From Tubulanus polymorphus (lineage: Eukaryota > Animalia > Nemertea): a DNA stretch of 64,000 bases. Positions 6,001-42,700 of the stretch are shown here, piece by piece. Position 1 is the stretch's first letter. Each line of letters begins with the position of its first letter. Under the pieces are notes generated by a model. The model was not told where the DNA came from and did no database searches. It worked only from the letters and a program-made list of their open reading frames with translations. Location: assembly GCF_964204645.1 (NCBI RefSeq), contig NC_134027.1, positions 5,240,485 to 5,304,484 on the forward strand. Direction: 5' to 3'. Both the position numbers and the translations under genes were made by a program.

Positions 6001-8285
6001 TACTTTCCTTCAACAGCAAGCCTCTAAATCAAATGAATGAGAATTGGTTGCCATTTTTTCGTGAGAAAATGTTGTAGCGGTGGATACGCTGCTATCGCAT
6101 TACTGAAAAACTAGACTTTGGTGCCGGAAAGAATGTAAAACCTATTTGAAATTAAACTATTCAAATTCGAGATATCGTAAAAGAAGTCAGATTAATGGTA
6201 TTTTCGATTTTCACCATTATGCCAAATCTGGTGCACGGGCCTTTCGGAGTGGTGTCCCTCGCACTGGAAACTGTTTGATGTTTGAAGTTAGTTTTGGTCA
6301 TACATTTGACGATTCATTAAGGTTTTATGTTTTTCGTGCACGCTTATTCCGTGGTCTAACCTTACAACTCTCCCGGGAAATGATCCAATAAATTGCTATA
6401 ATCAAATGCATCTTGGAGCTTCTTAATTGATAATTTGCTCGCATCGGCGAATTAAGTCAATTAGCCAAGATATTTGTGAGATGAGAGGACTGGTGTAAGT
6501 AAGGGACGAAGGTCGTATATTTATATCCCACTCGAGAGGCAGAAATAGCTATAATTGTATTAATCAACACACGGTTTCTATCGGGGCTTTTAATTCGATT
6601 TACTGAAAATTTCTCGTACGCAAACAAATTAAATCTGAGTATTGGGAAATTTTAATAACTTAACTGAATCGAGGCGTGATATTAATGCGAAATTAAATGC
6701 GTGTGTTTAACTCAATTCCAGCATACGAAGACGTTTGCTCAAATGATCGTCAGAATTCGTCTCCTCAATTTTCCAAGTAAACATCATTTTGAGAATCTGG
6801 CATGATTTGTTTCGGTATGATTTAAGATATGTGCTGCAACTTTCTATCGTTCGTCACAATGTTAAAACTGTAATCGTTATATATATGAATGTATAAATTG
6901 GTAGAATATGTATTTCCTGTGTTAAGCACCACAACTATGGGCGGTGCTGATGGGGGAGATTGGATTACACATCATGTAATATTGATTTGACTCAGTATTT
7001 AAGCTTCTGTCGCGCGCATACATAATTTCTCTATTTCATCTTTGCGTGTGAATTCCGATACAAAACTTCCTTCACGTTAGTCTGCGTGTTAGAGCTTTAT
7101 TCGTAAGGAGCCACCTCAATAAAACATCAGTTCCATTAACAATAGTTCATCAACGAATAACTGTCTTGTGTCGTTGAGAGATGATTCAGTTCGCTCAGTT
7201 TCTCCTTCTTAACTGTCGGCGATAAACAGAGATAAAACAAAAACAAATATACATGGCATTCATAGCATAATGAGCATGTGCTTGATCCTGGTTTGATTTT
7301 CCTCCTCTTTATTGTTAAAAGCCATGTTATCCATATATTACAGTGTAATAATAAATATAAGATTCAATCGTTTTGAATTGTTCGGACTGAACAAGTCCGG
7401 TAGACAATCCATAACAAAACTCGCAGCAATGCCATACATCCACGTGTTATACTTCAGGATTAATTCTGAAATTTTACGAATGAAATTACAATGGCAGATT
7501 AGAACATTGCACAGACAGGTGAAACTTATGATAATTAACAATATAATTGTAATATTAATATCTAATCATTATTTATATGTACCATCAATATCTTATCAAG
7601 TATCAATCGATTTTCTTAATCACCCGATGGTCTGAGATCGAATGAATCCCCGAATGTATGAAGTATACTTTTTCATACGTTTAGATGATCAAGGTGTTCG
7701 TTCGAGCTGATTAGATGAGAAGATATACTAATTAGCCTGCCCGTCATTGTCCCCAGATAGATTCATTAACTTCGCCTCCAGTTTCTGCATGACCACTCAC
7801 GACGGCTACTGCATTATCGGTCTACCCCGTAGTTTCTACGACTAATTTCTTCTTTCTAATAGTAAAAGACCGAGGATATGTGAGTGAGAGCATTTTTTTC
7901 CGCTCACAGAAAAACACGTTGAACTAATTTTCGTAATATGGCGGTTCAAAGATGTCGAATTCGTTTCGAAGGCGTATTAAAACACTGTCAAATACGAATA
8001 AATGTACGCGATGTAAACTCATCAGTAATATTATTATCTTGTTAATGTATACATAATTCAAAGCGCTGATAGTTATAGCTCTGCCGTCTCGTTGTTATTG
8101 CACAAAAGTCATCCAATTTTAATGCGGTGCTCGGATCGATGGCGCTCCACTGTTTCCAACCTTTGCGAAACATCCGCTGATGGTAAGTTGCATTACGATA
8201 TTGACACCTACATGTGTATACTCTCTCTCTCTCTCTCGTATGTTACAGATTGCCACTAGTCACAACCGAAACAAAACCACCGAGA

Positions 8286-14200: not shown

Positions 14201-17200
14201 CATTCATCTGAGATCGGTTTTTGTCGGTTGGTATTCGTCGGCGCCCACACGCGCGGTCTCCTTAATCTGTTGCAGCGCAAATAATCAATACAGGCAAAAA
14301 ACCCAAATCAAATTTCAACATTCCTGAATAAATTGTAGAAAATTAGATTAGGCACCAAAAGCTTCCGAAGAGCGGCCATATTGACATATCTTTTTAACCC
14401 CGCTCTGATGTTATATACTGCAAGTGAATCACTCCGTGTATAGTTCTCCTTCAATCAATAGCCAACTGATTCTTATGAAGAATCGTAATCAATGGATAAC
14501 ACGAGTGGACTTCAACTTGTATTTGCATCATAACCAGATCAAATAAACCAATTTGATTAGAGACTTTTTATAAACTTATATTTGAAAACCAGAATATTTT
14601 ATATAGAATTTGGTTAATATAAAAATATAAAACATACATTTTTGTGAACGCTGATATGATGAATTGGCCTTTCTATATAAACCGAGACTTCCATGTATTC
14701 ATTATCGGCTGGAATTGATTTAAGAATGTTGTTTTCATTTACTAAAAGGCAGCGCAATAACCGACTAGGTCTGGGTTGTTCTGATAACCAACCATGAAGC
14801 GACAACCATGGAAAATACAGACGTGCTTTCATCAAATGAGTCCTCTCATGAAAAGCTATTTATTCCCATAATGCGCTAGTCGATCGAAAGATGACGTCAC
14901 CATATAATGTAAAGATTACCTAGTTTATAACCCTACCCCAAATCATCTGATATGTGCCTGGCAATTCATAATTATTTTTCATTTTTTCACACTAAATCCC
15001 CGCCGGCTGGCGAGTATACTGAGAAATTACTATCGGGAATTTTAGCTTCTATCGATATGAAATAAGATATTCGTAGATGCGTATTCCTTGTTATAATTGA
15101 AATAAAACAGATACATTCTGAAAGAGTCGAAATAACTTGGGGGCTACGGATTGTAACCTACAAATATTTCAAGCAAACCTACGTAATTGTAATGAAAACA
15201 TACAAGGCTTTATACCTTGTTTCTCACTTCTACTGAGCTTAAAAAGTTGACCCTGTACATAACTATTCTAAGAACCATATATAATATAACCATAACAGAC
15301 ACTGCAGCTATAGAAATGAACTGATTTATTGCATTTTACAAAAGTGGCCCTGCCGATCAGGGAAAACAAGGTATTATTTTATTCTTGCCTAAGCATACGA
15401 ACGGAAATGATGTTCATCACAGAACCTTGTATGGAATATTGACCACCATTTTGTTAATTTTCGATTTTTTCCGGAAGCCGGTTACACGCTCAAACAAGAC
15501 GTGTCTGTACATACACTCCGGGGATCAAGTAATATCATATTCAAAATCAAGCAAACAGATGATTTCCTTTTCATTTTGCGTATCTTCTATTCAGCCTAAT
15601 GCAGACGCTGTTCGTTACCACGATCGATCATCATGATTCTTGACATGGTTTTTTCCCTTGGCCCCTTCACCCAATTAGAATGCTAAAAAGCTCATCAGCA
15701 TTGGAATTACCGTCGTTTCGCCGATCGTGGCCAGACTTGTGTCCCTCTTAAATTGGCTTACGGTTATTTTCAGCGAATGACGATTTATCTCAATAGATCG
15801 AATCAAGCATTCGTTACTATGAGTGTCGGCTGATGCTAGTAGTGCTGTTACCTTAATCAAAAACATTTGATTTAAAAAAGACAAGTAATATTTTTCATAA
15901 ATGATAAGGGGGCAATTAGTACGCACTATCAACTGATTTCACCGATTTACCTCTTTTGTCATTTTTTTCTGGACTGCGGCTGATTGTCGTTCTGACCCTT
16001 CTTAGTATTTATTTCTACTCTGATATTGATACTAATTATCGAATATAATTTCCCCGTCGAATTGACATTTTTGCGGGTTGCTAATCATTAGTCAGTTATC
16101 AGCAGCGCTGCTGTAGCGAACTACTGAAGTATCTTCTTACGATTATTTTATGACCCTACATAGGAAATAAATATAGACAGTTTGGTAATCCAGTGGCCGT
16201 GCACATGACGAGGCCACCTGAGATCAGATTTACTGTAGATTCTTGTCTCATATCGGTCAGTAACGTATCTGATCATGTAATAACAACACGGAAGTGTTCT
16301 TTCCCAATCTCGTGGCATTTGAAAATATCGTTCGAACTTCATTTCATGCGAGTCCTCCACTTTCTTTGTCGGGGCAACTTTAGTGTTGGGTAGAAAATGG
16401 AGGACAACTGTAAAACTGTAACAAAATCGGTAATACATGCACCTCGGTTTCTAATCTGTATTGTGCATATTTTCAGGACGCCATAACCCGGTGAAATCTT
16501 AAATTTATTTCAACCTAATGATTTTCACGTCGGTTTCCATATTCCTATCCTATAGATTTTCGATATGGTCTGTCATCTTAACATCTGTACTTGATCGACT
16601 ATCGAAGGAGCATTATGGAACAGTGATGTTCATATACACCAGGTCGTTGATACACTTCCGAAACTGCGAACACAAATATACCACGGTGGCTGATCCGTGA
16701 CATATCAATGTTTTTTCATCCTCCACGAAATCGCGCAAAAACAGGTCTTGCCGCACAAAAATGAATTTTACCGCGCATAAACAGATCTCAAGCGCTCAAA
16801 AACGCACGCTATATATCTGTTTTGCGCGTTCTCGTGAGTGATGAAAAAAATACTGATATATCCCGAATCAGCAACCATTGTATACAATACAAATAAACAT
16901 CAGGAACCACAACCCTCCCCATGTAATAATGCTCGCTACCCTTGCACTGAAGCTCGTGAAATAAGGTAATTCTACCATATTCAATTCCAAAAATCAGTTC
17001 CAGTTTGAAAATAACGAAAAAAAAACAAGATACGTGGATCCAGCATTTAGAAATGAACTTTACAAAAGTAACTTTGAAATTGATTTTCGATCGACTATCG
17101 GAAAAAGAATTATTCCATAAACACTCAATCATTCTTTTTCTATTTACCAACGGATAGAGCGCTTTGCGTTGTTTGATGTGATTGATTCGCCATCAAGTTC

Positions 17201-20200
17201 AATTGCTCGTGTGTATTGTTCACCCTAAGGCTAATATGAACTGCGGAGACTTCGAGGAAGCCAGAAAACCCGAGATCAAAAGCTACGATCACTAACCCAA
17301 TATAACAACGGATAATCTCTCATCGATCAACAACCGCACAGCCTGTCACAACCAGTGAAATGTGTTTTCGCAAACGTGATAGTTATTGAAATTAAGTTGT
17401 CAGTAACTGTAGACTAAATTTCACTAGATCTCTCCATACGTTCGCTTGCTGGCTAATTCTATATGGTTTCTGACTCCTGACAGGATATTTTGCATCCGTT
17501 TTTTACCAGAAACGATGATGTCGGGTATTGAATAATCTATTCAGATTCCATATAACAGCCATTCACTTTATACACGCCTATCTCTGGTGAACATTGGATC
17601 AACTTAGGAAATCATTGAAGAGCGGCCTTATCCCATATAATCACTTTTATCAAATGTTACTCAAGGGATTGTTATTTCCATTAAGTCATATACAGCACTC
17701 AATGTCTCATCCCATTCCATATAAATCCATCAGCTACTATGGTCGAAATATATTCAATACTGCAGTATTACGTAGATGACCGATTGTAGTTCCTAAGGCG
17801 ATCATAATTCAGCCTTTTTCGGTCATTTCTATCTCTACTTCAGTTACGAGCCGCAGAAAATTTCAAGTTTCATATCAACAATCGATCGATTTTCATTTAA
17901 ATGAAAGGGTAATCTTATCTCCGCACTGCCGCAACAAACCGAATATGCCTTGGGTATCCGCAATCGCGTCGTTATATTTCTTGTTCAACGCCAAGTTTAA
18001 TTCAGTCTATACAATATTCAATAGCATCATGATGTAAGTCTGGTTCCTTGACTTTCAATCCGAAATAGCCCCCAAGGGAGCTTTGTCAGTTTAAATTGGC
18101 TGAATTATTCAAATCTTACTCCGAATGTTTGACCTCAGGCGGGTTTCAGATTTGCAGAACGTAATGAAATTCATCGCTTTTCACGACGAATCCAAGGTTT
18201 CTTACGTGGCAAACATGAAGTATCTAAACAGTACTTTCTGTGACAGATTTCTGTGATTAGTGACTGTACAATTTGAACTTACATTTCAAGCCCACTTCTG
18301 AATTTATCACAAGAGGTCACAGGTGCGTCATGTAAATTGCCGATGGCCACGTGTAATAAGATTCGCACTGAGCTGCTGCAATCGTGTTTGTAGCTCGGGT
18401 AAACATGACAATGATTCATGGTCATATTCACAGCCATGACGACAAATCATTTGATAGATTGCCCGTACCGGTTCCTGTAACGTCATTTAGTATCAATATA
18501 ACAGTCATCACCAGACTTGATGAAGCTATCAGCCATGTATGATCATATTCTTACGCGCAGTTTACTGGATTATAGATACTAGAAGCCCATTTTTCTACTT
18601 TAGGAGCAGCTGCGATCCACCATCAGAACCAGACTCTTGTTACTAACAATATTATATGATCAATTTGTCAGCTTGAATGTGTACTACAACGTTCCATCCG
18701 AAGATTTATCTACATCTTCCTTGGCTCGTCTCTAACACATTCTGAATTACTCGTTTCTGTATACGCATCATAAAGTATCTAAATTGATCGCTCTCTGGTT
18801 TCAATCAACAAGTCCACCAGTCAATAATACCCAACACTATCGATCATTTATCTATGAATTATCCATAATTCAGAATTGCGCTAATCGCGTTTTAGCGAAA
18901 TAAACATTCAATAAAAATCTATTGAAAGTTGGTTTTTTTAATGGTTTTTTTACGACTGGGCGGCGTGTCCGGTTTTGTAGAGTTCCGGGGTATTTCATTA
19001 GGGATAACCGTCTTGTCTTGCAGGTGAATGGCCCAGATGGTGTTTATTTAGAACCAGGATCTCAAAAACTGACAATCCAAGTAGAATGGTTGGATTCACA
19101 TCTTCTTCTTTACGACGGCTACCATCCGTTTGACGACATTAGTAGACTTCATAAACACCAGATGAGGTAACGTAACATAATGAACCAGGGGCGGATCCAG
19201 ACCGTATTAGCCGTATTGCCCAATACGGTCTAGAATTTTTAAGTGCCCTTCGAAATTTCACCGGCAATATTTTTGACGGCATTATTTCAGCAACCGCTAA
19301 TTCCGTGTCCGTAATCCGGGCATAATTATAAAATTAATCGGTTAGTATATACTGCTGCCGAGAAAGTGAGGAGAGATAATCATATTTGTAAAGCCTTAAA
19401 TCATGATAAATTAAAAAGGGCACTTTCCTTTTGCAAGGGGCACTCATGCTTTAGATGAGGGCACCTTGTCCTTCCTTGCCTTTTCAGGGAGGGCTAAAGG
19501 GGCACTCGTACTTTAGAAGAGGGCACTATACGCGGAAAATGTTGAAGAAAAGGGCACTTTTTTGCCTAATTTTTAAAATTTTAGGGGCACTTTTGGTTTG
19601 GAAGATGGCACACGACATAAGGATAAATGTGAAGACGAGGCAATTTTTGCCGATTGTTAACAATGAAGGGGCACTTAGCCGTATTCTGTATAATTGTTAA
19701 GGGGCACTTTTAAAGATTATAGGGGCACTAGGCGAAGTTGACGACAACCATTCTTTCATGGGTTCGCCAGCTTCATTTTTTATCCGCATGTGTTGAAATC
19801 TTGTCTCGAATTCGTTTATTCTGGATTGCTCTGCTAGCCTCTAGACGCCCTCTAAAAGCCTTTAAATGGTACCATATTTTCAAAATTTTCTGGGGGTGGG
19901 CCCCCAGACCCCCCTCTAAGGACTTTGCGCCTTCGGCGCTCGCATTGACCTGGATACTGGGTGTGCCCTTAGATCAGAAAGGTGCCCTTAAATTTCCTTC
20001 CAATACTGTCTACCCATCCCCCTGGATCCGCCCCTGTGAACATCATTTATGGTTGAACATCTCAGAATGAAAAATACTTATTGAGCCTTTTTTTATGAAT
20101 GAATTAAGTTTAGTTGAGCATAGTTAAGCATTCATTCAACAAATGCGATGATTTAAAATATTTTGACAGGGAAACATTCACTTTCTGAAGTGACGTACCA

Positions 20201-20357: not shown

Positions 20358-21466
20358 CAACGAACAAAAACAGATCACCGAGGCGAGAACTACCAACATC
20401 AGCGACAAGGAAACGAGACCACACCGCACATATAGCGAACAACTCAAATGATAGCAAGAACTAATTTTGGGAATATATCGAAATGCGAGTTGGTATTGTA
20501 TTAGCTTAAATGCTCAAGAAGGTTGAAAAGGGTAATTCGAGTAATCTTATTTTTTGCATCTATTGGGAAAGGGAAAAAGTCTGGTTCCTCAGAGATGATT
20601 TAATCATGCGGGGAGATGTTATTTCGGTTCCCGCCAGTGAGGAATTAAAAAAGCCCCTGCATGCTCCATGTGTTGAATAAAGCGTTAATTCAATTCATTC
20701 ATGTCAGAGTTTATGTTGTAGGGCCCTTCTTTGGCAGCAAAAATTAATTACGTACTGTCTTAAATGTTTTCATATAGGACCGTTATGTATGTGTTGATAG
20801 AAAATAATATTATATTTTAGAGTAATCACTCCTAGTGATAACGAAGGTAGGCGCACCTTAAAGTTATAACAACCTTTGTACGGGCGTGGATCGCTATCGA
20901 AAAGTCGTTCAAGTTTTATCTTAGTCTTTGTGAAAAGTGGATCCCTACGTGTACTTTCATTTCCCTAAATCAGATCAGTTTTCCCATTGCATTTAATATA
21001 TGATAACGTTTATCAAGGCATGTCTTCGATTCCTTGCGTCGGGAATTTTTCCAATAGACATATCATAATGTCTGATATATCACATGTTCGTCTAAGCTTT
21101 AGGAGACCAGTTCGTAAACCCTCATCGCATCGATATCGTTGTCGCTCAGTGATCTGTTTGGAGAAAGACAATTCAGTTTTTAGATCAATATATATCAAAT
21201 CTTTTTTATAATGATTAGCTTTTTAGTATTAATGTTAATTCGTGTTATTGAACCATTCTAGTGTCGTTTTACCTTGCAAAGGTACAAACACTATTTCTCT
21301 GCGTTCATGATTTACCGTTGTTTAATTAAAATACCGGCGAAGTATGCATGGATTAGATATCATATCGTTGTTTACACGTAGAATGAAATTGTAAAACTCA
21401 TCATTTTCTAAATTTCTTGGTGTATTGCAATCTGTCAACGTCCAGTTACGAATCTTGTGTAGTACA

Positions 21467-21543
21467 TCGGCATGGGATTCGAACCCGACTGCATCGCGAT
21501 GCTAGGTAGTCTTGCGATGGCTTCGGGTTCGAATACTCGCCGA
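21467..21543. repeat. Imperfect hairpin with opposed tRNA T-arm/B-box-like motifs; second copy at about 25635-25702
   Basis: ggcatgggattcgaacccga..catcgcga pairs with ttgcgatg..tcgggttcgaatactcgcc. Confidence 0.65.
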
Positions 21544-21953
21544 GGGAGGAAATAGATTGGTTGAACCAGATGATCTTAAAAATGGCAAAAGGCAGATAAT
21601 ACTGCCGCGAATATGTCATACTCAGGCTCCAACGAGCTGTGCATGAAGGTGATGCAATATTTTCAATCGACAAACAAATACACAATGTTAAACTACGTTT
21701 CGATTATTGTGATCTCTAAAAACACAGGCACTTTACTACAATTTAAGAAGCACATACATGTTGATATCTTGTAGAATGTTTTTATTAAGTCAATTTAATG
21801 CGATATTTTTATTTATATACATGTAATATAATTGTGTGTAATTTTATCTCGTTATTCAAACTTTTTAACTTAAAATAAATATAGCAATAAACATAGGCGT
21901 CATTTGTTTTATATCTTATCCATCGCATGAAAGACCTAAACAAGATTATAAGG

Positions 21954-24900
21954 TCAAGTTGTTTGAAGGTCACTGGACGCCACCGCGTCATTATTTTGGG
22001 CCTTTTGATCAGACGGTACTGGCGCATCAACCGTTTCTTTGTTGTTTGGGATTTTCCAACCGCCACAAGTCGTAATTATGATAGTTGACAAAAGACCCTG
22101 CAAATAAGGACATTCTCATAATTACCGATTCCAAATAAAAGATTGGCTATATTCAAATATAGAATCGATATGGAAACCAGATGGGTTTTATTACTTGTCC
22201 ATGAACTAGTATACCCAATATTGTCTTCACACGGACGACTAGATACCAACAGGTTTGAATCTTGTCGAGAAGATACAAATACTTACGAAACATATCAGAG
22301 ACAGTCCTACGATAGTGCATGACCAGGGGAAACCAATGGCATCAGTCATATAACCTCCTAGAAGTGGGCCAATTATATAACTGGAACAAGTAAAAACTGG
22401 TTTATGAACCACTTCTAGGTGTGTTTCATATATGTTGACGATTTTGAGTCACGTTTAGACTGAAATAGCTTTGATTCAAAAAGACATGTAGATTTATTGA
22501 TGATATTGTTACTGACAGTAATAATGGGACAGTCGTTTGATTTCGTAATTTTCATATATTCTTACCCAGCAGAGTCAGCGATAAGGAACAACGACGCTAT
22601 TAAACCGTTGAGATTTATATCATCGGCATATTTAAGTTTTTCCCTACAAATTGATATAGTATGTGTGAATTGATACGATACCAGTGTTTCAATGTTGAAA
22701 TGGAATATTTGTACGCACGTTGCATACGCCTTAATGATGCCAGGCACTGGAACTGTACCAAATATTAAACTAGCACCAACTAAAGAAAAACCTAATATAG
22801 GCAACCATATCTGATGTCTGAAATGTAGATAAACATAAGCATATTACATACTGATAACGTCCAACGAATTCCTATGAAAGAGGCCATCCATCGAGATTCG
22901 AATCACGATGAAGCTAAGAGGGGAATCCACAAACCCCGGTGTTATCCCGAACAGTGGTGTTTCACCGATTTGCATCGTTGATAATCCTGTCAGACACAAA
23001 CCAATTACCATAAACGGCTTTCCCAAATCCTAAAAATAGAAAATCATCAATATTCTTATATTCTAAAAACCACATCAATATGTATAAGATATGGTAATCC
23101 GTCTAATTACCTTTCTACGCTATGAAAAGAAAATGTATTTTCTGTAAATAGTTACTTACCACTTTATCTATAAGTAAACCAACAGGAATACTAACGATGA
23201 TGTATATTAAAATTGATACCAGGTAAATAAGTCCAATCATAGTTGGTGAAAGGTGATAGTACTGAAATATATTGAGATGGCATTATTCGAAATACCTTAG
23301 AACCAGAAGTTGTGGATCGAACTAATTACGACGATCAAAAAAAGGAATAAACGTGAAGAAAAATACATCCACCATGATTTGATTCGATGAGAATAACGCA
23401 TTATTACCCGCTTCAGGTACACAGCTACTGTTGGTTCTACAAATCCGAAAAATAGGCCGTGGGCCACGACCACCATCGTCGTAAGAACGACAGGACAACA
23501 CGTCATGAGTTTAAAAAATTCTAATGGTGGATATGGTGATTTTTTTACATCGGCTGAAAATTAGAGCAATTTAGTGATTACTCGGGTAAAATGAAAGATG
23601 CCGCAGTCGAAACTATCATCGAGTTCATGTTGCAGCTTAGAAAGTGATTTGACGGGAAATGAGCTATACTACCGAAACAAACACGATTAGATCGACGATC
23701 AACGTACACATAGATGGCATGACGATGAGAGATACTAGAAAAAACAGCATGCTGATGCTTCCCAGTACGAGAAACGGCAATTCAAATCCAGATACCTATA
23801 GAAATACACCAAAATGTATATCAATTGAATATTGTAAAAGTAGCGAAACACAATATTCCATTCGTTTTGAAACTGAACTTACATCATAGAGTGCTCCGGC
23901 TATGAGTGGTCCTAACATACTACCAAAACTAATAACCGTCTCAGTAATAGCCTGAAAACAATGTTCTTTTCTTCAACTTTTGAACTATAATTCAGAAGTG
24001 CTATCTGTGTAAACAGTAATGTGCTAAACTCTGATAATTGAAATAACTTTGTCATCAATACTGATTTTAAAAATGGCTTACGGGTTGAATGAAAAATTAT
24101 CTGATACCGTCGATATCTATTCATCATACGAAATAGAAATATGAGAGCATTATTTTTTTCATAAGTAAGGGACGATGTAAGGGACGATGTCAATAAGGGT
24201 ATCTATGTCAAATGAGTTGTTTTTAGAAGAATTCCATGTATTTTTAAGTCAATGTAACAATGGGCGTACGTGGTTTTTAACACAATATGGTGTAATATAT
24301 TATAATAGAAATAGTAAAAAAGGGAACTTACAACAACTGTGTTGATTTGTTCAGAAAATAACGTGACGATCACGGTCGCTCCAGTCGCAGTGGTTAAACC
24401 AACTCCCAGTGCCATAGTTATCCGTAGAACTATGCTCAATGATGTAAAGACTACATTGGACCGCGAATATATCACAAACCTTCAAAAAGAGAGGGGTTTG
24501 ACCTATCTTATACGTCCAGCATCAAAATTCGGGAGAGCATCCCCGATTCCACCCGCCCCTTGCATTTAAGGATGTAAAAATAAAAAAATAAAATCATATC
24601 ATATTCTCCATTGAAAAATACTCTGGTACATGCAAGCGGTTCTGATATCATACCCGAATGCTACAACGGATATAGAATTGATAAATGCTCCACCACAAAA
24701 CATCAACTTAACCCCTACACGAGTCATCTAAAACAGATTTTAAGAAAATATTCATGAATTATTTTACGATTTAAAAATATAAAACCTAACTATTATGCCT
24801 CAAAATACTCACATAAACGCCGGCAAAATAGGACGAAAATAGTTGTGAAATTGGAAATACGGCAATAATCCAGCCAATCGTACCATGCGATAAACCTCTC

Positions 24901-25268
24901 TTGATGGCCTGTGAAATTCAATATCGATATGATTAATTGAAGAATTCTCCGTAAATATGTTATCCACAAGTTCATTAAACGGCATTCGAAAATACCTCAT
25001 TCGGATAAAATGGCACCAGGGCAAAGAAGGACATCCATTCCAAAAGATTCATCGTATTCATTACTCCTAATAAAATGTACTTGTTTCTGGTGTTTATCTT
25101 ACTGCCCGTATTTCCATCTTTTTCTCCTGCTGTATTTTCTGTGGTGTTCTCTGAATTTTTGTCAACATCAAGATTTTCAATTTTACTTCCGTAATCTCGA
25201 TTCGTATCGGAATTATTAGCGTTAGTGACTAAAGGTAATGATTCTTTCCTGGGAATATCTGAAGTCAT
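21954..25268 (-). CDS. MFS-type transporter, SLC18B1-like (multi-exon)
   Basis: Spliced minus-strand exons read MTSDIPRKESLPL...MSFFALVPFYPNE | AIKRGLSHGTIGWIIAVFPISQLFSSYFAGVY | MTRVGVKLMFCGG... | ...LSIVLRITMALG... | AITETVISFGSMLGPLIAGALYD | VSGFELPFLVLG... and later exons with FVEPT and GPLLGGYMTDAIGFPWS. These are typical SLC18B1-family MFS motifs. Stop TGA at 21956-21954. Confidence 0.82.
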
Positions 25269-26800
25269 ATTATTCACACAAACTTTTATTCTGGAAATGC
25301 ACGTTAGACTGCGCTATATGCCATATGGGAGAATGCAAAGTTTACTATGAAATGACAGGTGCGCGGCAAAGATTATGGTATTCAGTCAGTGGTATCCACC
25401 TGTCGCAACGTAAAAGTTAATGCATAATTGTATGTAAAAACATGCGGTTTAGATAATGCTATAAATAGGGTGGACGGAAATCGTAAAGAATAATTGATAT
25501 ATATGTAACATGAATTAGTAATCGTATCGTTGTTTATACTTAGAGTGAAATTGTAAAACTCGTTTTTTCCTAATTTCCCTGGTGTATTTTAATCTGTCAA
25601 CGTCCAGTTTTGGTAAATCGGCATCCTCCCAGCTGGGATTCGAACCCGACTGCATCGCGACAAGGCAGTCTCGCGATGGCCATCGGGTTCGAATACTTGC
25701 CAATGGATATAGATTGGTAGACAGGCACTTCACAATTTAAGATGCACAAACGTGTTGATATCTTATAGAATGTTTTTATTAAATGAATTTAATGCGATAC
25801 TTTTACTTATATACATGTAATATAATTGTGTGTAATTTTATCCCGTTATACACTTAAAATAAATATAGCAATAAACAAAGGCTTCATTTGTTTTATATTT
25901 CATCCATCGATTGAAAGACCTAAACAAGATTAACGAAGTCACGTTTTTTGAAGGTCGCTGGACGCCACAACGTCATTATTTTGGACCTTTTGATCAGACG
26001 GTAACTGGCGCATCAACCGTTTCTTTTCTGTCCGGGATTTTCCAACTGCCAAAAGCCGTAATTATGATTGTCGACATAAGGCATAAGGACCAGTGATGTT
26101 ATCAAACCGTTGAGGTTTATATCATCAGGATATCTAAGTTTTTCCCTACAAATTAGAAAAATGATTGTGAATTAATTCGATACCGGAGCTTTCAATGTTG
26201 AAACGGAGTGTTTGTACGCACCTTGCATACGCCTTAATGATGCCAGGCACTGGAACTGTAAAATCAAACTAGCACCAGCTAGTGAAAAACCTTATATAGG
26301 CAACCATATCAAATGTCTGAAATGTAAATAATCATGAGTATGTTACATACTGATAACCCCCACGAATTCCTATGATAGAGATCATCCATTAAGATTCGAA
26401 TCACGATGAAGCTAAGAGGGGAATCCACAAACCCCGGTGTTATCCCGAACAGTGGTGTTTCACCGAGTTGCATCGTTGATAATCCTGTCAGACACAAACC
26501 AATTACCATAAACAGCTTTCCCAAATCCTAAACATAGAAAATCATCAATATTCTAATAGTCGAAAAACCCCATTAAGTTGTGTAAGATATGGTAATCCGT
26601 CTTATTACTTTTCTACGTACGTTGTGTAAAGAAAATGTATTTTCTGTAATTAGTTACTTACCACTTATCTATAAGAAAACCAACAGGAATACTAACGATG
26701 ATATATATTAAGATTGATACCAGGTAAATAAGACCATTCATAGTTGGTGAAAGGTGATAGTACTGAAATATATTGAGATGGCATTATTCGAAATACCTTA

Positions 26801-26872
26801 AGGCGGGCGTAGGTCGGACGACAGCTTGCGAGTCACTACGACTCGCAACGACCCACCGACCTACGCCCGGCT
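26801..26872. mobile_element. 72-bp MITE with TTA target-site duplication (PIF/Harbinger-type by TSD)
   Basis: TIRs aggcgggcgtaggtcgg / ccgacctacgcccggct (1 mismatch), with TTA on both sides. The paralogous site in the intact copy (about 23291-23305, aataccTTAgaacc) is empty. Confidence 0.9.
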
Positions 26873-27889
26873 TTAGAACCGGTTGTTAAGGATCGAAATA
26901 TCAAACAAGAAACGACCATCAGAAAAAGGGATCAATGCGAGGAAAAAAATACATCCACCATAATTTCATTCGATGAGAATAATTCAATAATCACCCGCTT
27001 CAGGTACACAGCTACTGTTGGTTCTGTAAATCCGAAAAATAGGCCGTGTGCCACGACCACCATCGTCGTAAGAACGACAGGACAACACGTCATGAGTTTA
27101 AAACATTCTAATGGTGGATATGGTGATTGTTTACATCGGCTGAAATGGTACTATCCGGGTAAAATAAAACATGCTGCAGTCGATGCTATATCGAGTTCAT
27201 GTTATGGCTTAGAACGTGATTTGACGGGAAATGAGCTATACTACCGAAACAAACACGATTAGATCAACGATCAACGTACACATAGATGGCATGACTTTGA
27301 GAGATACTATAAAAAACAGCATGCCAATGCTTCCCAGTACGAGAAACGGCAATTCAAATCCACATACCTAAAGAAATACACCAAAATGTATATTAGAAAA
27401 GTAGCGAAACACACACAATGTTCCATTCGCTTTGAAACTGAACTTGAGTGCTCCGGCTACGAGTGGTCCTAACATACTACCAAAACTATCAACCGCCTCA
27501 GTAACAGCCTGGAAAATAATCGTTTTGGATATACTGAATCGTTCATACGATACGAATAGATTTCTAAATTTCTATTTCTATCCGTTTTTCATTCTGCGAT
27601 ATGGCATACGTTAATGTTATTTTCTTCGATTGTATGACTGTAATGTAGAAGTGCTATATCTATGTGAACTGTAACTCTGATTACTGAGATAACTCCGTCA
27701 TCTAAACTACTTATGAAAAAGCTTCCCGATTGAATGATAATACAATATTCATCGAACGATATAGAAATATAAAGGCATCGTTTATTCATAAGTACGAGAC
27801 AATGTCAATAAGGATATCTATGTCAAATGAGCTGTTGTTAGAGAATTCCATTGATTTTTAAGCCAATGCAGCAATCGACGTACGTGGTT

Positions 27890-28318
27890 CTTATTATGAA
27901 ATGGCGCGATGAATTATAACAGAAATGATAAAAAGGCGCCCCCGCCAAAATGAACTTTCATTTTGGCGCCCCCACCAAAACGAACTTTCAACCACGTAAA
28001 AAAATTCTTTATATGCAAATTTATGCAAATTACACATAGGATCAACGCACCAAATTGAAAAATAATTTTTCTGTGGTTGAATGCTTGTTTTGGCGGGGGT
28101 GCCAAAACGTAAATAACCGCGCCAAAACGAAATAATCTTTGATTTGGTGCGTCAAAACGAACAGAGAAAATTGGACGTTTTTCGTTGTTTATGCGGGGGC
28201 GCCAAAACGGAATTTTCTTTGTTTTGGCGCGTTGTTTTTCGTTCTGGCGTTCTGGCGTTCTGGTGCCCTCATTTACATACCAGGAATTTTACGCTATGGC
28301 CCTTATCAGCCACCATAC
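27890..28318. mobile_element. Probable repeat or transposon fragment inserted in the pseudogene, with reiterated (GGC)GCCAAAA(CG) motifs in both orientations
   Basis: Absent from the intact gene copy. Motifs cgccaaaa/ccaaaacg and ttttggcg recur many times. Termini not resolved. Confidence 0.55.
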
Positions 28319-29141
28319 ATTCATCATATTCATTACTTCTAATAAAATGTACTTGTTTCTGTTGTTATCTTACTGCCCATATTTCCATCTTTTTCTCCTC
28401 CTGTATTTTCTGTGGTGTTCTCTGGATTTTTGTCAACAACAAGATTTTCATTTTTACCTCCGTAATCTCGATTTGTATCGGAATTATTGGATGGAGTCAA
28501 TGACTAAGGGTATCGATTCTTTCCCTGGAATATCTGAAGTCATATTTTTCGGATAAACTTTTATTTTAGAAATTCATCCACGTTAGACTGCGCTATATGG
28601 GAGAATGCAACGTTTACTATAATGAAATGACAGGTGCGCGCCAAAAGATTAGGCTATTCATTCGGTGGTCACTCGTTGCAACGTATTAACGTCCATGCAT
28701 AACTACTGTATGCAAAAATATGCGGAATAGACATTAATGCTATAAAGTTGGTGGACGGAAGAATAATTGATATGTAACACTGACGCATGGGGAACTCGTG
28801 TTTTGGTAATTGACAACCCCCAAGTATCAACGGGGTATTTATTAACGGGGAAATCAATACTTGTATAAAATCTGCAAAAAACCACGCGCTAATATCTCGT
28901 GTAAACGGTGAACAACTCGAAACAACGATTTTCCCCGAAACTGAATTGTAACCCATGCTTCATCAGTTATGGCACTCCCTCCTAAACAATGATCGCTTCC
29001 TTTTTGGCCAATGGGACGCATATTTGACGCATGCGGGCTTTGGCTAATTGACATATATATCAATAGCCGTCAATCGAAGCTTATCACAGTTCGCTAACTG
29101 AAATCTCGCGCATAAACTGATTTAGCTCTCGCAACATAATC

Positions 29142-31785
29142 ATGGATCAGAACGGATCTACAAACTGGAAGTGTAGCAATGGAGATCATCATCAGTACGA
29201 TGAGGATTGTCAGGCAGATGCCGTTATGATCAAACATACGTTTGAACCTGATGACGCCCTCATTTCCGTTGTCTCTAACTCATCAAGCAGATGTCATTCC
29301 ATGCCGCAGAAGACGACAAAAGAGCTGAAATTAATCCCGTTCAAACGTGCAGTAAGTATACGTAATTCACATGAGCTATAGCTAATAATAATGATGATAC
29401 CGAAATCACTATTCAAATATTCAAACTATATTTCATTTACAGGACACAGCATCGGAGTTTAATACGCAAATCGATACTATCTTTATATTCGATGAATGCT
29501 TTTTTGGTGCCCAGATCAAAACACAAAAAAGGGGATTTGAGTTTTTCCATACATTTGAAGCGGTTTCCAAAAATTCCGTAGCAGAAGGTCTCGATATAAA
29601 GTGAGTAAATCATTATAAGCAATAATCTTGACTATTAACATGAAATGATTAATTTAGTGCACTTCATATGGCCATAGATAACGACGTGGGTCAACTGATA
29701 AAGATAGCTTTCCCGAATTCCCTTAATTCGTCATTAATCGTGAATCAAAGAGATAATTTCGGATTTTATAGCCAGATAGAAAAGTAGTAACCCGTAACTG
29801 GGTTTTCTAATCGTCTTGTAAAACCCAGCTATACTATAAAGTCAGAAACACAGAACTCCGGTTAACATTGATCGAGAGCAATTGATCGAACACATCTACA
29901 AGTGCTTTTTTTACAGAGACGGCGACTATCTACTGATGATAAATGAGAAAAATGTTTGTGACATTGATAACAAAGGGGTCGTGGAAAAATTCAATCAGTT
30001 GCAGACGGATACAGACATTAAACTGGTAAGGTCAACAGCTTTATCGCAACAATATTATTTTCTATTTGTACTATTCATTATCGGTTTTAACCAAAAAAGG
30101 CAATATAATCCGTTAGTTCATCCGGTTTACTAGGTAGTACTTAAACTATATATTTCCGCTCGTGATGCGGGTGCACTAGAACATCTATCAAATTATCACT
30201 ACATTCAAGGACAATGAACGAACTTCGAGTGGCTTGAATATTGTGCAGTAACAACGTGCCACATATCATTTTGTTATGTACTGTTTTGTCCAGGTGACAT
30301 GGCAAGAATCGGAAGTTTCGCAACCACCTTTCACTACCATCAAGTTCCAATTGCATCGAAATTCGGGTACGACTTATTTTTGGTTTTCTATTAGATATGA
30401 AACTATGTAACTGGTAATGTGAATGTTTTCAATACAACATCCATCGGAAGGTCAATTAGTTTTGAATTATAGGCGTCATTTTGGTTTACTTTCTAGCTTA
30501 AGAGATAAATGGGGTTTACAATTTCATGAAATGTGGAAAGGCAGTTCAAGAATCATCCCTAAAACTGAAAAACCTGTTTGATACCATAAAATCATCCTGA
30601 TATTCACGATGACTTATTTTTTCATAATAGAGATAGGGGTCCTTTAATCGGATTTCGCGCAAAAAATTAATAGACATATTAATTTTTTTAGGTATTATAG
30701 CGCCCTGTGAAGATATAACAGTGAAACACGTTACGCAATTGCAATCTCAATCTGTACCCATTGTCAGCAAGATTTACCTGTCCAATACTACACATGAGAT
30801 GCGACAACAGACGCTATATATAGTACCACGTCGTGGGGCAGTGTATCGAGAGGAACGTAAAGCCGGTGACAAATCTTGTAAGCATATTGAATTATTATGA
30901 TCTATACTGGTTTTGTGCATGACTGAGAACGACGACTTTCCGACGTTTTACCTACAATTTAGTAGCGATATTTTGGAGCAAAGGAAATGTTGCAAACACG
31001 AGCTAACAGGGTCAATCCCTATTTTAGGATTAAAGAAAATACAATGGGCCATATCAATTAAATATAAACTTTCATCGAGCGTGTATTTACAATGTACTAC
31101 TCGTGCAAGCATTATTTCTTATCCATAAAACCAATTGTACCTGTATTATGATATTATGAACTATCAATATTTAATCATTATGTCTCGATTTTTAGTTGAA
31201 CTGTATCATACGGCAATCTATGCGATTGCAAAAAACAATTTCTCATTGATTGAGCGGCATCAGTTCTCAACGAGAAATCCAGACAGCGGCAAAGCACAAT
31301 TCCTTTGCTACCCAGACGATGGAAAGCCCAACTTAAGGTTTGCGGTACGTACAAAATCATGATCCACTTAAATTCTTGTAAAATTGTGCTAAAAACCAGG
31401 TATGAACCACAGCATTGAAAGATAATCATCAGCAATTGATACCGTTCGTTTATAGAAGAAAGGAAAAGATGATCCAACCACCTTCTTCGAAAAGAAAATG
31501 GACTCTGATGTAATAGGCGGAGAATTCTACTTGCGATGCGCTGAAGGTAAAAAACGGTGCATATGAAAAGAACGCCCGATTTTGATGGAACTCCGTGTAG
31601 ATTGTGATACTATTTTCCTGTTGTTGATTTCTATTTCACTCCTAGGTTCGGACGATGGCGAAATATTTGTAAGTGCCCACAATCCGGAAGACGTGCAATC
31701 ACTTTGCAATCTAAATGTTAAACGCAGCGAGGGTATTCTGATTTTCGAAATTTTGAAAATCACTAACGATGGTAACGCTCGTTGA
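29142..31785 (+). CDS. PDZ-domain plus putative IL-1-like beta-trefoil protein, 371 aa, 8 exons (29142-29351, 29443-29600, 29917-30025, 30294-30366, 30692-30877, 31196-31344, 31456-31546, 31646-31785)
   Basis: All seven introns are GT-AG and the phases chain (0,2,0,1,1,0,1) into one 1116-nt ORF with no internal stop. The PDZ signature VSKNSVAEGLDIKDGDYLLMINEKNV spans exons 2-3. The C-terminal ~170 aa has short beta-strand patterns resembling IL-1 (QFLCYPDDGKPNLRF; DPTTFFEK; IFVSA; ILIFEI). The gene structure is well supported; the IL-1 assignment is inference. Confidence 0.75.
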
Positions 31786-31828
31786 TCTGAGAAAATATCA
31801 TTATATTTATCAACATATTCATGTTGAT

Positions 31829-31912
31829 ATCATTATTACGATTATTATTATCATCATCATTACCATTATTATCACCATTGTTATTACAATTTTTGTTACC
31901 ATCATTATTATC
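31829..31912. repeat. Degenerate (ATT/ATC/ACC)n trinucleotide microsatellite just downstream of the PDZ gene stop codon
   Basis: atcattattacgattattatcatcatcattaccattattatcacc...; it explains the poly-Ile ORF 31769-32056. Confidence 0.85.
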
Positions 31913-34900
31913 ATGTTAGTATTGTATTTTTTCCATCATGTACGTACCCTGGGTACAGCTAACTTGGTTCAAAGAAAAACACACGATACGTTTTATTGTA
32001 CAAGATTCAATGAAAATAACGTATATAGTGAAAAAATGTTTTATCATATTACGTAAAGGTGTGATAAGTGTGTTTTCATGTGTCAACTGCCAAACAATTT
32101 TCAATAAAATTAAATTGTAATTGTTCATTTTGTATTTTGTATTGTTTATATGTCCATTTAAATGAATTCAAAGTTTATCCAGGAAATAAAAAAGCGGATA
32201 CAATTCTATACACTTGGTTTCTTTTTGTTTGGCAACTCGTTTCCAAGTAGAAAGTACCGAGCAAGTTCTATAGGATATGACGTCACACACCACGCTACTC
32301 GCGGAGATATGTCTCGCGGTCTACAAGAGAAATCCCACAGAATGGGCATAAAACTATTAGCCATTATATGAGTAACAAACGTTGCTAACAATGTGTACTC
32401 TTTTGCTATGAACTTTCTTCATCTTTTGGCTGATTTATTGTGGGATTTCTCTCGCATATTCATCCTACACGGATATTGTTCATCACCTCGATTTGTCTCA
32501 CGGTCGTTTCTCCATTTGTTGTAGCGTATTTAGTCGAAATAACTGAAACGTAACAATTCTAGATCTGCCTTTAATAAAATCATGTTTAAAATGTCACACG
32601 GGCAAAAAGTGCTGTAAACCAATTTCTATACTGAAATAAATATTTTTTATATGAATAAACCATCCATCAATAGATAACCTTACATTCGCGACTTTCCATT
32701 CTGAACATTCGCAATATCTGACGAAAGTGAAATACAAGTTACTGTTGTTAGTCGCTATAATTCTTGATTCTTAAAAGTAGAAAAAAAACTACTTTAGACT
32801 GAATATGTATGAATACATGTGTGTGTTATTTATAGGGGTGGTATATAGCAGTAAGGTATTCTGGTCCGCGGGATCGAGTTAGGTTGGTGTCGATTTAGAT
32901 CATTTCGATACGCCCCCATATTCAGTTGATTGCGAGCTGTTCCCTTTAGTAGCCGTAGGTCATCTTGTATATACTTACGTGTATTACGTTGTTGTATAGG
33001 CCAGACCAGCTGCCGCGGAGCATTTCGCGTTTCACTGAAGCCTTTGTCCGTTCCGTTTGGGTGTTGGCTCGGGAGTATTCTATGAGGTAGGCTCTGACAA
33101 ATTTCAACTAAATTTCTATTTTCACATTGAATAAATTTAACTATGTATACTTAGTAAAGTGTTAAATTTGAAACCGTCTTGCTAAGGTTAATGCTCTGTG
33201 AGTAAACTAGGGCCAAACTGTTGCAATGGAAAATTGCGTCGGAAATCTTTTGGCTGATAGATGTTTTCAGGTTCTATAGTTCTATATAAGTTCAGCAAAG
33301 TAAAAATCAACTTTATTTTGTTGATATCTCTCTGGTATCAAATAATTAATTGCTAATTATGTTATATAAAACGCCGCTTAGGGCGAGAAAGAAACGTTGG
33401 ATAGATCTTTTAGTAGTCAAATGATTACTCCAAGGGTATACATATAGATATATTGTTTCGAAAAAGTCAAAAGCTAAAAATATTTTGATCTCTTTTAATA
33501 GCGAATCTTATAATTTTCAATGCATACGTAAGCCAGTTATTTTAAACCAGCTAAGCAAATTCATGTTAAGCTTCTATCAGATATGAATTGATAAACATGG
33601 GGAGAGTTTCGTCTTCGTTTTGTAATTCGCGGAATCATAAGCCCTATAGCATTCTGAGCAGAAACCATAAAACGTTTTTACGTCAATCATTTCTGGTTCC
33701 TTTGTTGCGTCGTGTTCAATTTTGCATCCGACCTTGAAATGATAATTGTATTGCAATTGAATAGACTTGACCGTTTTTGGCATCATGACACATGTGGGTG
33801 TCATTCCGTGTTACGTATGTATATATTTATTAAGATATTGGTAGGCGAGTTGGTACTAGAAGGTATTTTGTTTAAGCCTAATGCCTAGAATCTTGTTTTC
33901 TAAACTATTTCTTGCTACAAACTTTAAGCATTCCACCATGTATTTCATTGCAAACAATTTTTATTTTACTGGAATATGAACATTCCGTAAGCTTTCTTAA
34001 CTTGTGAAAAATTGATATTGCTTTCTGTATCGTATTTGACGTAAACCACTTTTTAGCAGGTGAACCTGACCTTGGTGTAATGAAGACCTAATGTACGCGC
34101 ATCATTCATGTGAAGACCGACACCTTGTTTGTAGGTTGAAATTAAAGAATCTCGTAGAGAATCAACTCGTAAACGGGATGCATTTAATATGGTCTCATTT
34201 ATAGGAAGCTAAGCTATGCTTTCGTTTATACTGCACTATGTTATTCACATTTGGCTTGAGGTTACGCGTACTTTGTTATTCACTACGTAATGGTATGGAA
34301 TGGTATAAGTATTGATTAGGTATTGCAAGCGAGTTCAAAAGTGCATTGTCCAGTTCGCCCTGACAGTACTGTCGCCAAGGCGACATATTCCGCGATTACG
34401 TCATGAATCGATCGCCCGTTTACATTTATTATTAAAGATTTAGCTGTAATCGCGGTTTAGTCGTCTAAATTTTAAGCGCGTAACAGAAATATGCTGATAT
34501 TTTATCCCAAAGCCTAGAAGACATCATTTCACACGATAGTATTTATTCACTGCCTTCTGTGGAGAATAACCTTCGGTTACATTTCCAGCCCTTTTTGTTT
34601 CCACCCTTTCATTCGCCGCAAATTATTGTTCAAGATTCCAGGCTGCTTAATCAATATTTCACGATGCCCTTTGTTTGTGCGCGAAAGTTGCGTCGTTTTG
34701 GCGCAAGTGAAGCGCATAAATAATTTGCGTTATTGTTGTGAATAATTTATCAAGCGCATTTGATATATTTCTAAGATGTGTTCACGTATATATAACAACT
34801 ATTGTATTGCCTGTAATAGGGGAACAATTTTCACTCGGGAGTATGTTTGGAAATTGTTGCTTGATTGTGCGCGCCAGTAGGTTTCACGATGTCATTAACA

Positions 34901-39700: not shown

Positions 39701-42700
39701 AGATTGGTCACCGGGGAATGAATTTACGTTAGCAACTTCTAGTCAAGATTGTACAGTCAAGGTGATTTTTATATTTTCTCTACTTGAGTCAAAGATTTCA
39801 CCCTTTAATTTGAATAGAATTTCATGTTTCTTAACATTTTACTATTGATAACACTGAATTATGTTATTTACTCCTAGTTTTGGGATGTTACAAGTCCTCG
39901 TAAGGCAACTAGTATGCTATCATCAAGCGCACCTGTATGGAGGGCTAGATTCACAGTATGTTCATTTGAAAGACTGCATTTCTGGAGATTCTGAATAAGA
40001 AGAATTTTAATCAGTCGAGTAATGTCAAACCGTTTATTCCAGCCATTCGGTCAGGGTATGGTGACTGTTGTCGTGCCACAACTTCGTCGCGGTGAAAACA
40101 GTTTACTGCTTTGGAACAAAAATGACCTACTTCAACCTGTTCATACATTTGTTGGCCATACAGACGTGGTTTTAGAATTCGAGTGGAGGAAACAAGTTGG
40201 AGGTGAGGCATTGAAAGTTCCTGGGTATATAATTTGCTTCATTTGATATACAATGTCATGTAACAAGCATTTCATGCTATTCATTTTGTATTCTAGTTGA
40301 TGGTGGTGATTATCAGCTTGTAACCTTCATGCTATTCATTTTGTATTCTAGTTGATGGTGGTGATTATCAGCTTGTAACGTGGTCGAAAGATCAAAGTCT
40401 ACGTATTTGGAGGATTGATCCACATCTGCAGAAAGTACGTTTGACATCACTTAATGATAGATTTGTGTTTCCCTATGTGAACGATTTTATACGACTCAAA
40501 CGGGTAATACTGGTATCTGTAATAACTCGCTTGAATTGTATTGCAGTTATGCGGTCCAGATTCAAACGATGAACTACTGTTGGATAATGTGGACGATATG
40601 GAAGAAATTGATGGAACAAACATTCAGTCAGTCATAGGAATAGCCGATGGCGAGAGATTGAGTCCAGATGATCTCAGTCCGTTACAATCAACTCCTCCAT
40701 CAAAACAGATTCCGTCGATGACTGAGCAAATTTCACCGCATCAACCAAAAACTTTACACCAAGAATTCTCCCTTGTTAACATAAACATTCCAAATGTCAC
40801 TGTTGATGAGGTTTGTAAAATATATCTGTTAAGAGAGCGTCCAAATTCGAGCAATACAAATATGGATCAAACATGTTTTCACATTACAGATGGATGCGTT
40901 TAAAAGGACATGTACTGTGTCAGTGGTTAGCAGTAAACATTTGGTGAAACTAATCATGTCGTTTCCCGTGACATATCCGAACAACGCTGCACCGACATTC
41001 CAGATTGCGCAGCCTACAACTATCGACCAAAATAATCAAACAAAACTGCTTAAGGTGCTTAAAGATACATCGCTTCAACACGTGAAGAGAAATCGATCGT
41101 GTTTGGAACCGTGTCTACGTCAGCTTGTCTCTTGTCTCGGGAATATTACGGTAGGTTTCTGGTTATATTTACATTCACAAATGATAAAACCTGATGGCAC
41201 CGATCGACTTCCAAGTTTTGTTTTTCACATATATGTCAGTTACCGAAAGAGTGCCAGTTTATCTTTTGAATTGTTTGAAGCAAAGAAACCTTCAGCTCAA
41301 CGGTATAAATTCTGTGAATCCAGCTTAATTTAAACACTGTTTTAGTCAATACTATAGCAGTTTCTTGATATGTACCAATTAGTGGGTTAAGAAGAGTTCC
41401 TCGGGACACATCTAAAGACCTTCCTATTCAGGCAGTACTGTTGTAAATACAATACCTGCGCTATATAAGTTAACATTTATAATTCATTTTCAAATCTGTC
41501 TTGTAGTTGGAAGAACGTGTAACGCCCGACTCGGATACACCGTATAACTTACAACAACCTGTTATTCAACAACCCACATTTCTACCTCTGTATTCTTACG
41601 GAAGTTTTCAAGATTCTTCAATTCCATTTCCTCGAACGTCTGGCGCTCGTTTTTGTGGGGCTGGTATGTTATCGTTTGCAGGCATTATCGATATCAAATA
41701 TAGATTTCGCTTTCATTTGAATCGTTCTTGCTTATCATTACTAGGTCATCTCGTAACGTTTACTAGAAGCTCTGATCTGAAGAAAAGTACAACAGAAATA
41801 ACACCTAAGTAAGCAGCGGTGTAATGAATATGTTTCTAAGTTCTAAATCACCGCATTCGTACTGGAATTTTTCAATTCATGGTGATTGGTATATTTCAGA
41901 TCATTGTCTGCTCTATCGGCTTACACACAAAGCCATTACAATGTGCGGACACCTCAACAGTCTCAACCATTCAATCTTATCTTCAATATGCCTCGCAGTC
42001 CTCCGAATAATGACGGCGTATCAATCAGTAATTTCTACAATTACAAAGGGGTAAGAGTTTATCAATATCTGATATTTTGAAGTGAACAACAATCGAGTTC
42101 CGAGATATTATTACGTTTGATGTAAATTCACCATTATTTTCAGAAACAAAGACTTCGTCCAAAAAAATCACTGAACAAGGAGTCGAGTGAACACAGTTCA
42201 CGTTCAAAGAAATCCTCTTCGTCTAAAATGTGTCGAGTGATGATTTACGACGCTAGTGTTTTATTGCCGATTCATAAATACCTAGCTGAAAATTATGTGT
42301 AAGATCGAATTCCACAACATCGAAAAAGTTGACTTGAAATTGAACCGTATTTCGCAGTTGCTATTTTTCTATTTCATCGCAGGCTGAATCCGAGTAACGT
42401 ACAAGAAACTTGTACTAAGAATGCCAGCGTAGCTGCATCTATTGGACGTAAGGACTTAGCTCAAATGTGGTCGTTGGCAGCTTTATCAGCTAGTCCAATG
42501 TTATCGTCAAGTCCCAATCCTGATGCAGGTCCGCCATGGGCTTATATGCCATTTGGAAGGAACCTTATCAAATCATGGTATGTAAATCAATCGTATAGTT
42601 AATGTAGCTATTTTATGATTGATGTCTTGATATCTGTTGATTATATATTCAAATAGGTTAGATCATTACAGTATAATGCATGATGTGCAGACATTAGCTA

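Follow-up and report, generated by a model that had tools for sequence, protein, structure and literature searches.

A ribbon-worm gene encoding a predicted PDZ and beta-trefoil protein, likely of the IL-1anc family, with two central trefoil introns that are probably not specific to IL-1

The stretch of Tubulanus polymorphus DNA analysed here (the window, 64,000 nucleotides) carries an eight-exon gene on the plus strand at 29142-31785, whose 371-aa product is defined by spliced contigs and by an open frame over all eight exons. The spliced product agrees at 371 of 371 residues with a stored protein (P0001) that NCBI labels uncharacterized LOC141901970, Tubulanus polymorphus. Six public sequencing runs contain the stretch or are linked to it, and no run is recorded as RNA. 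Spliced contigs occur in two of these six (X2 and X5, from studies P1 and P2), and in each run the contigs skip all seven GT..AG introns exactly, which implies that they derive from spliced cDNA. The remaining runs gave an unspliced contig across the gene (X1), unspliced pieces without a joint (X3 and X4), or no cover (X6). The first-pass annotation had highlighted the last three introns, 30878-31195 (318 nt), 31345-31455 (111 nt) and 31547-31645 (99 nt); each has GT..AG ends, and four further introns lie upstream of them. An artefact or non-gene is ruled out by the spliced joints in two studies together with the identical annotated protein, and a pseudogene by the frame that stays open through eight exons; the one exon variant checked (29255, in both spliced runs) is synonymous. 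Taking the start codon to be the ATG at 29142, upstream of which lies an in-frame stop, the seven intron phases read 0,2,0,1,1,0,1. The features of the gene, all on the plus strand, are as follows, with trefoil strands numbered by eye.

29142..29351, +, exon 1, residues 1-70: acidic, non-hydrophobic N-terminus without a signal-peptide core (spliced contigs)
29352-29442, +, intron 1, phase 0 (spliced contigs)
29443..29600, +, exon 2: N-terminal half of the predicted PDZ domain (spliced contigs, Pfam, PDB matches)
29601-29916, +, intron 2, phase 2 (spliced contigs)
29917..30025, +, exon 3: C-terminal half of the predicted PDZ core (spliced contigs, Pfam, PDB matches)
30026-30293, +, intron 3, phase 0 (spliced contigs)
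30294..30366, +, exon 4: predicted PDZ end and beta extension (spliced contigs, Atlas model)
30367-30691, +, intron 4, phase 1, opening the 1-1-0 run (spliced contigs)
30692..30877, +, exon 5, 186 nt, phase 1-1: linker containing Asp191, then strands 1-3 of the putative trefoil (spliced contigs; strands by eye)
30878..31195, +, intron 5, phase 1, in codon F246 at the putative strand 4 start (GT..AG, spliced contigs)
31196..31344, +, exon 6, 149 nt, phase 1-0: strands 4-7 of the putative trefoil (spliced contigs; strands by eye)
31345..31455, +, intron 6, phase 0, directly behind A295, where putative strand 7 ends (GT..AG, spliced contigs)
31456..31546, +, exon 7, 91 nt: strands 8-9 of the putative trefoil, with LRC at 31531-31539 (spliced model; comparison by eye with Table S2 rows)
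31547..31645, +, intron 7, phase 1, in the loop between putative strands 9 and 10 (GT..AG, spliced contigs)
31646..31785, +, exon 8, coding part: strands 10-12 of the putative trefoil, then the stop codon (spliced contigs)
31786..32138, +, 3' UTR: ATTTA at 31805, AATAAA/ATTAAA at 32103 and 32109 (contigs of a spliced run)

Several minor features accompany this structure. The lengths of the last three introns are multiples of three, which places exons 5-8 in one genomic frame; each of these introns contains an in-frame stop, and the lengths are probably due to chance. Short high-copy repeats lie in intron 5 (31005-31039) and downstream of the gene (32420-32480), where depth spikes and loose ends appear in X1, and ATT/CAT simple repeats occupy about 31830-31910 of the 3' UTR.

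The N-terminal half of the protein holds a predicted PDZ domain at about residues 89-181, for which the evidence is weak but concordant. Pfam PDZ_6 matches residues 109-140 at E 0.0026 with 17.9 bits, under the cut-off of 27; eight of nine weak matches in a PDB sequence search are PDZ-bearing chains of NHE-RF3/PDZK1 or Shank1, aligned at residues 101-165; and all ten structure matches listed for the ESM Atlas model of the whole protein (pTM 0.58, pLDDT 0.61) are clusters carrying PDZ families. By a crude hydropathy test the first 70 residues contain no hydrophobic leader, the best 11-residue mean being 1.0, and the 371-aa protein appears to lack a signal-peptide core. An acidic stretch in exon 1 (29199-29255), with aspartates at residues 20, 22, 26, 37 and 38, lies upstream of the PDZ domain and may include protease sites.

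A beta-trefoil is predicted at about residues 207-366. Residues 170-371 of the Atlas model match clusters of ricin-type trefoil lectins, with TM scores of 0.57-0.63 over residues ~201-371 that fall below the bar for naming a family. Two single-sequence AlphaFold2 models are of low confidence (pLDDT 30 and 33); with such a model Foldseek gave no match at E 0.001 and VIA-align a best Z of 3.9, and neither outcome is informative on IL-1 versus FGF. Twelve strands were placed by eye against the IL-1anc sequences of Table S2, themselves compared by eye only, at about residues 210, 225, 233, 246, 268, 281, 290, 305, 318, 332, 344 and 357; the low-confidence AlphaFold2 model of the domain (pLDDT ~30) has strands at places 1-3 and 7-12 and none at 4-6. 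No internal three-fold trefoil repeat is detectable in the sequence (p 0.09-0.69).

This domain layout is that of the IL-1anc family, whose definition combines a PDZ domain and a trefoil with the lack of a signal peptide (Fontenla-Iglesias et al. 2026, PMC13736523; preprint PMC12338702; both available to us in part). The spliced gene likely encodes a leaderless protein of 371 aa in which a predicted PDZ domain is followed by a predicted IL-1-type beta-trefoil. With the IL-1anc proteins it would share an N-terminal extension, a PDZ domain, a predicted C-terminal trefoil, the absence of a signal peptide and two central trefoil introns. Language-model features in the Atlas give leads in the same direction. 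For the whole protein, the best three named matches comprise one cluster of echinoderm PDZ proteins (0.92) and two clusters of chordate IL-1, 356-358 aa long (both 0.88). For residues 170-371, IL-18 ranks second (0.79) and IL-33 eighteenth (0.77). Scores below 0.9 are leads only, and with 130-155 of 256 features shared, the matches fall short of the 170 that family members typically reach. An unannotated bacterial cluster ranks first for the trefoil part, and no IL-1 occurs among the structure matches listed. Ahead of strand 9, DPTTFFEKKM looks similar, when compared by eye, to the DSRIFFEKMM of Saccoglossus IL-1.1.

Direct sequence comparison speaks against this assignment. Three homologue searches, with 3, 862 and 93 candidates, recovered only the protein itself, as did a search of 1.84 billion representatives at an E threshold of 0.001. 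Pfam IL1 (PF00340) gave no match at E up to 10, Pfam FGF (PF00167) gave none, and a Pfam search with each of the eight exons singly yielded nothing except one chance-level row. No IL-1 chain is among the PDB sequence matches of the whole protein, and the two matches of the trefoil part are irrelevant. The IL-1 signature pattern quoted in PMC3271213 is absent from the protein. So is [F/L]ES, a motif of strand 9 that the available text of PMC13736523 describes as 'often' or 'largely' conserved in IL-1anc; by eye, LRC stands in its place at residues 321-323. Several listed IL-1anc sequences, among them the crustacean ones and LpicIL-1.4, also appear by eye to be without FES, so the motif is not strictly defining. 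The Tubulanus protein differs from described IL-1anc members in this replacement, in having no detectable sequence similarity to any other protein, and in being encoded by a single copy in the window.

Gene structure offers a further line of evidence. In IL-1beta the coding introns have phases II,0,I,I,0 and the trefoil lies on the last three exons (PMC4880838, as far as its accessible part goes). Introns 2-6 of the Tubulanus gene read 2-0-1-1-0, equal to this full series. In both genes the trefoil starts in a phase 1-1 exon, which is followed by a phase 1-0 exon; we take the corresponding human IL1B exons to be 165 and 131 nt, versus 186 and 149 nt in Tubulanus. IL-1beta differs in having a propeptide rather than a PDZ domain and a trefoil on three exons rather than four, and the Tubulanus gene has in addition an upstream phase-0 intron and a phase-1 intron (intron 7, at 31547, splitting codon G326) in the putative strand 9-10 loop.

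The first-pass annotation had described a phase-1 intron before the FELY strand and a phase-0 intron after KPNLRFA, and had equated both with introns of human IL1B. Both introns are borne out by the contigs X2 and X5, which skip them: the first splits codon F246 and the second follows A295. We take the last two introns of human IL1B to lie at mature Val40 (QQ/VVFSM, phase 1) and after Glu83 (KPTLQLE/SVD, phase 0). The equivalence then holds for the order of phases and, judged by this position and the strands placed by eye, intron 6 would be in exact register. Intron 5 would lie two codons downstream of its IL1B counterpart should the conserved aromatic of strand 4 be F246, which the IL-1anc sequences suggest by eye; should it be L248, intron 5 would be in register.

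This argument is already published: in the available text of PMC13736523, intron phases are used to support invertebrate relatives of IL-1, and the phases of the two central trefoil introns are reported as conserved in all IL-1anc genes examined, with the trefoil on 3-5 exons. The Tubulanus gene, with central phases 1 and 0 and a trefoil on four exons, agrees with this description. In their reply to reviewers, also available in part, the same authors describe ambulacrarian genes with the PDZ domain on exons 2-3 and the trefoil on exons 5-8, an arrangement shared by the eight-exon Tubulanus gene. Intron 7 is therefore probably common to ambulacrarian IL-1anc genes and probably not special to this one; the earlier description of it as a further phase-1 intron that IL1B lacks was correct in that it is real and absent from the IL-1beta series.

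We considered whether the protein could be IL-1-like and its intron match a coincidence, phases 1 and 0 being the commonest and the alignment having been fitted by eye. A bare adjacent pair of phase 1 then phase 0 is cheap, with a probability of 0.66 of occurring somewhere among seven introns, and the possible two-codon offset of the phase-1 intron (by eye, against the human position given above) and the low confidence of both AlphaFold2 models leave some room for this explanation. Opposed to it is the extension of the phase run to five introns: 2-0-1-1-0 would arise among seven introns with a chance of ~0.014 (like the other chance figures, computed from assumed phase frequencies of 0.47/0.30/0.23). 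Agreement in phase and in position within two codons of two fixed targets would have a chance of ~0.0008, a figure that presumes an independent alignment, yet ours, like that of the first-pass annotation, was made by eye. Given also the reported conservation of the two introns throughout the IL-1anc genes examined, we regard coincidence as very improbable.

A different question is whether the two introns single out IL-1. The first-pass annotation had named an equally good match to FGF intron positions as the observation that would count against its reading, and FGF5 probably provides such a match for the two introns. From partial accounts of the two genes, the coding part of exon 1 in elephant FGF5 measures 364 nt and exon 2 measures 104 nt, which gives computed phases of 1 and then 0. 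In donkey FGF5, five of the twelve strands remain after a frameshift at residue 145, within exon 2, from which exon 2 (~codons 122-156) likely spans strands 4-7. All amphioxus FGF genes, in the available description, keep two core introns (ici1/ici2) that are taken as ancestral. Together, the FGF5 phases and the ancestral core introns of amphioxus indicate that the phase 1/phase 0 pair probably does not separate IL-1 from FGF. FGF genes would thus resemble the Tubulanus gene in encoding a beta-trefoil with two core introns, phase 1 then 0 in FGF5, that bound an exon likely spanning strands 4-7; the differences are a middle exon of 104 nt in FGF5 versus 149 nt here, a signal peptide in FGF5, and the lack of a Pfam FGF match in Tubulanus. 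The exon-strand layout of FGF1 and FGF2 agrees with the assignment of strands 4-7 to exon 2 of FGF5. To our knowledge, FGFs carry no PDZ domain.

These observations bear on a second alternative, in which the gene encodes a PDZ-fused trefoil of another branch, either a divergent intracellular FGF-like protein or an independent fusion, serving as an intracellular scaffold rather than a cytokine and owing its 1/0 pair to general trefoil or FGF ancestry. The same pair in FGF5 is compatible with this, as are the missing FES motif, the want of any sequence match to IL-1 in the Pfam, PDB and representative searches, and a fascin/FGF cluster among the Atlas features that at 0.77 comes close to IL-18 at 0.79. 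Yet FGF is not matched in Pfam either, exon 6 is longer than its FGF5 counterpart, some IL-1anc proteins lack FES as well, the upstream phases 2-0-1 match those of IL-1beta, and the combination of PDZ and trefoil is what defines IL-1anc. We consider this alternative unlikely, if less so than coincidence.

The balance of the evidence favours IL-1 by virtue of the PDZ domain, the IL-1 clusters among the nearest language-model matches and the 2-0-1-1-0 run equal to that of IL-1beta. The LOC141901970 protein is most likely a member of the IL-1anc family and, per the literature searches made, would be the first from a nemertean. The earlier proposal that the intron match is evidence of homology thus survives insofar as an IL-1 relative is most likely, and loses the claim that the pair points to IL-1 specifically; the stronger evidence, which the first-pass annotation overlooked, is the upstream PDZ domain and the five-intron run. 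No nemertean is included in Table S1 of PMC13736523, and 'Tubulanus', 'nemertea', 'Lineus' and the LOC identifier are absent from seven of its supplement texts; no paper describing a nemertean IL-1 ligand was found by title or abstract opening. The nearest lineages in the available text of that paper are Lingula (LanaIL-1.1/1.2) and bivalves (PmaxIL-1, CvirIL-1, MtroIL-1). Among vertebrates, the teleost nIL-1F, known to us from part of the lumpfish report (PMC7144542), likewise combines a PDZ and an IL-1 domain in 352 aa; its coding exons number seven rather than eight, and its IL-1 family domain, unlike that of the Tubulanus protein, can be recognised. The IL-1anc family, described only recently, would come to include ribbon worms. 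Such a member, too divergent for sequence searches to reach and without the FES hallmark, helps to define the features that are truly conserved.

The two central trefoil introns themselves are likely old, inherited from a common trefoil gene, rather than an IL-1-specific mark. In other words, the two-intron match on which both the first-pass annotation and the IL-1anc paper draw appears common to FGF genes, and dates the trefoil gene without identifying it as IL-1. We suggest, at roughly even confidence for and against, that the introns before strand 4 and after strand 7 are the same in IL-1, IL-1anc and FGF and descend from one trefoil ancestor predating the cnidarian-bilaterian split. If so, the published IL-1anc intron argument needs an FGF control, and intron maps would provide a direct test of convergence versus common ancestry for animal trefoils, including IL-18 and IL-33. 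In the accessible text of the IL-1anc paper (PMC13736523), mentions of FGF are confined to its being a further trefoil and to a structure alignment; the intron comparison does not include it. Common ancestry of the IL-1 and FGF trefoils is left open in the available part of PMC5861070, and common introns, if confirmed on structures, would bear on that question. We found no published statement of introns common to IL-1 and FGF; older subscription literature lay outside the scope of the search, and such a statement may be in print there. The literature base also included PMC4090809, PMC11733497, PMC13591910, PMC10054561, PMC2754481 and PMC4175617, each in part. A more speculative extension, that the upstream phase-2 and phase-0 introns of IL-1beta descend from PDZ-coding introns and that its propeptide is a decayed PDZ region, seems to us doubtful.

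By analogy with the IL-1anc proteins of sea urchin and lamprey, the Tubulanus protein may be made as a cytoplasmic pro-cytokine induced on infection. A protease may then cut the linker and free the trefoil; Asp191, the sole aspartate between residues 157 and 243, would be the only linker aspartate available. On the same analogy, the trefoil would leave the cell without the ER route and signal through an Ig-TIR receptor. According to the accessible accounts of IL-1anc, the pro-form is cut between PDZ and trefoil in some members only, just one of the published proteins tested is cut by caspase, and receptor binding is unproven even there. At the Tubulanus gene, no kappaB-like site is present in 27001-31800 and the covered 3' UTR (31786-32138) contains one ATTTA, so nothing here points to inducibility. 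D-x-x-D-G-like stretches, possible protease sites, were seen by eye in the N-termini of several IL-1anc sequences of Table S2.

The 64-kb window contains no second copy of the gene, which rules out a tandem cluster within it. Neighbouring genes carry MATH, WD40/RWD, TPT and DUF4200 domains, and WDR59, SLC35C1, CFAP100 and SLC18B1 are tentative gene names in this neighbourhood; IL-1R, GCC2, ESD and EIF2A were not recognised among the 22 neighbour ORFs scanned. Since IL-1anc genes have no microsynteny within lophotrochozoans in the available text of PMC13736523, the neighbours neither help nor harm the IL-1anc assignment.

Just upstream of the IL-1-like gene, 21347-25479 and 25509-28760 form a direct tandem duplication (79-90% identity) of a minus-strand gene resembling membrane transporters, presumably SLC18B1/MFS-like. 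With its frameshift and in-frame stop, the copy nearer the IL-1-like gene resembles a pseudogene, and identical kappaB-like decamers occur at 22048 and 26034 within the duplicated unit. A MATH-domain gene at 8205-19170 on the plus strand has a very long coding exon with a 420-aa open frame (Pfam MATH_2, E 1.7e-08), and its region includes a 167-nt near-perfect palindrome at 13319-13485, 97% self-complementary and possibly MITE-like. On the other side, an exact 54-nt tandem duplication at 40271-40379 lies at the boundary of an exon in the WD40/RWD (WDR59-like) gene.
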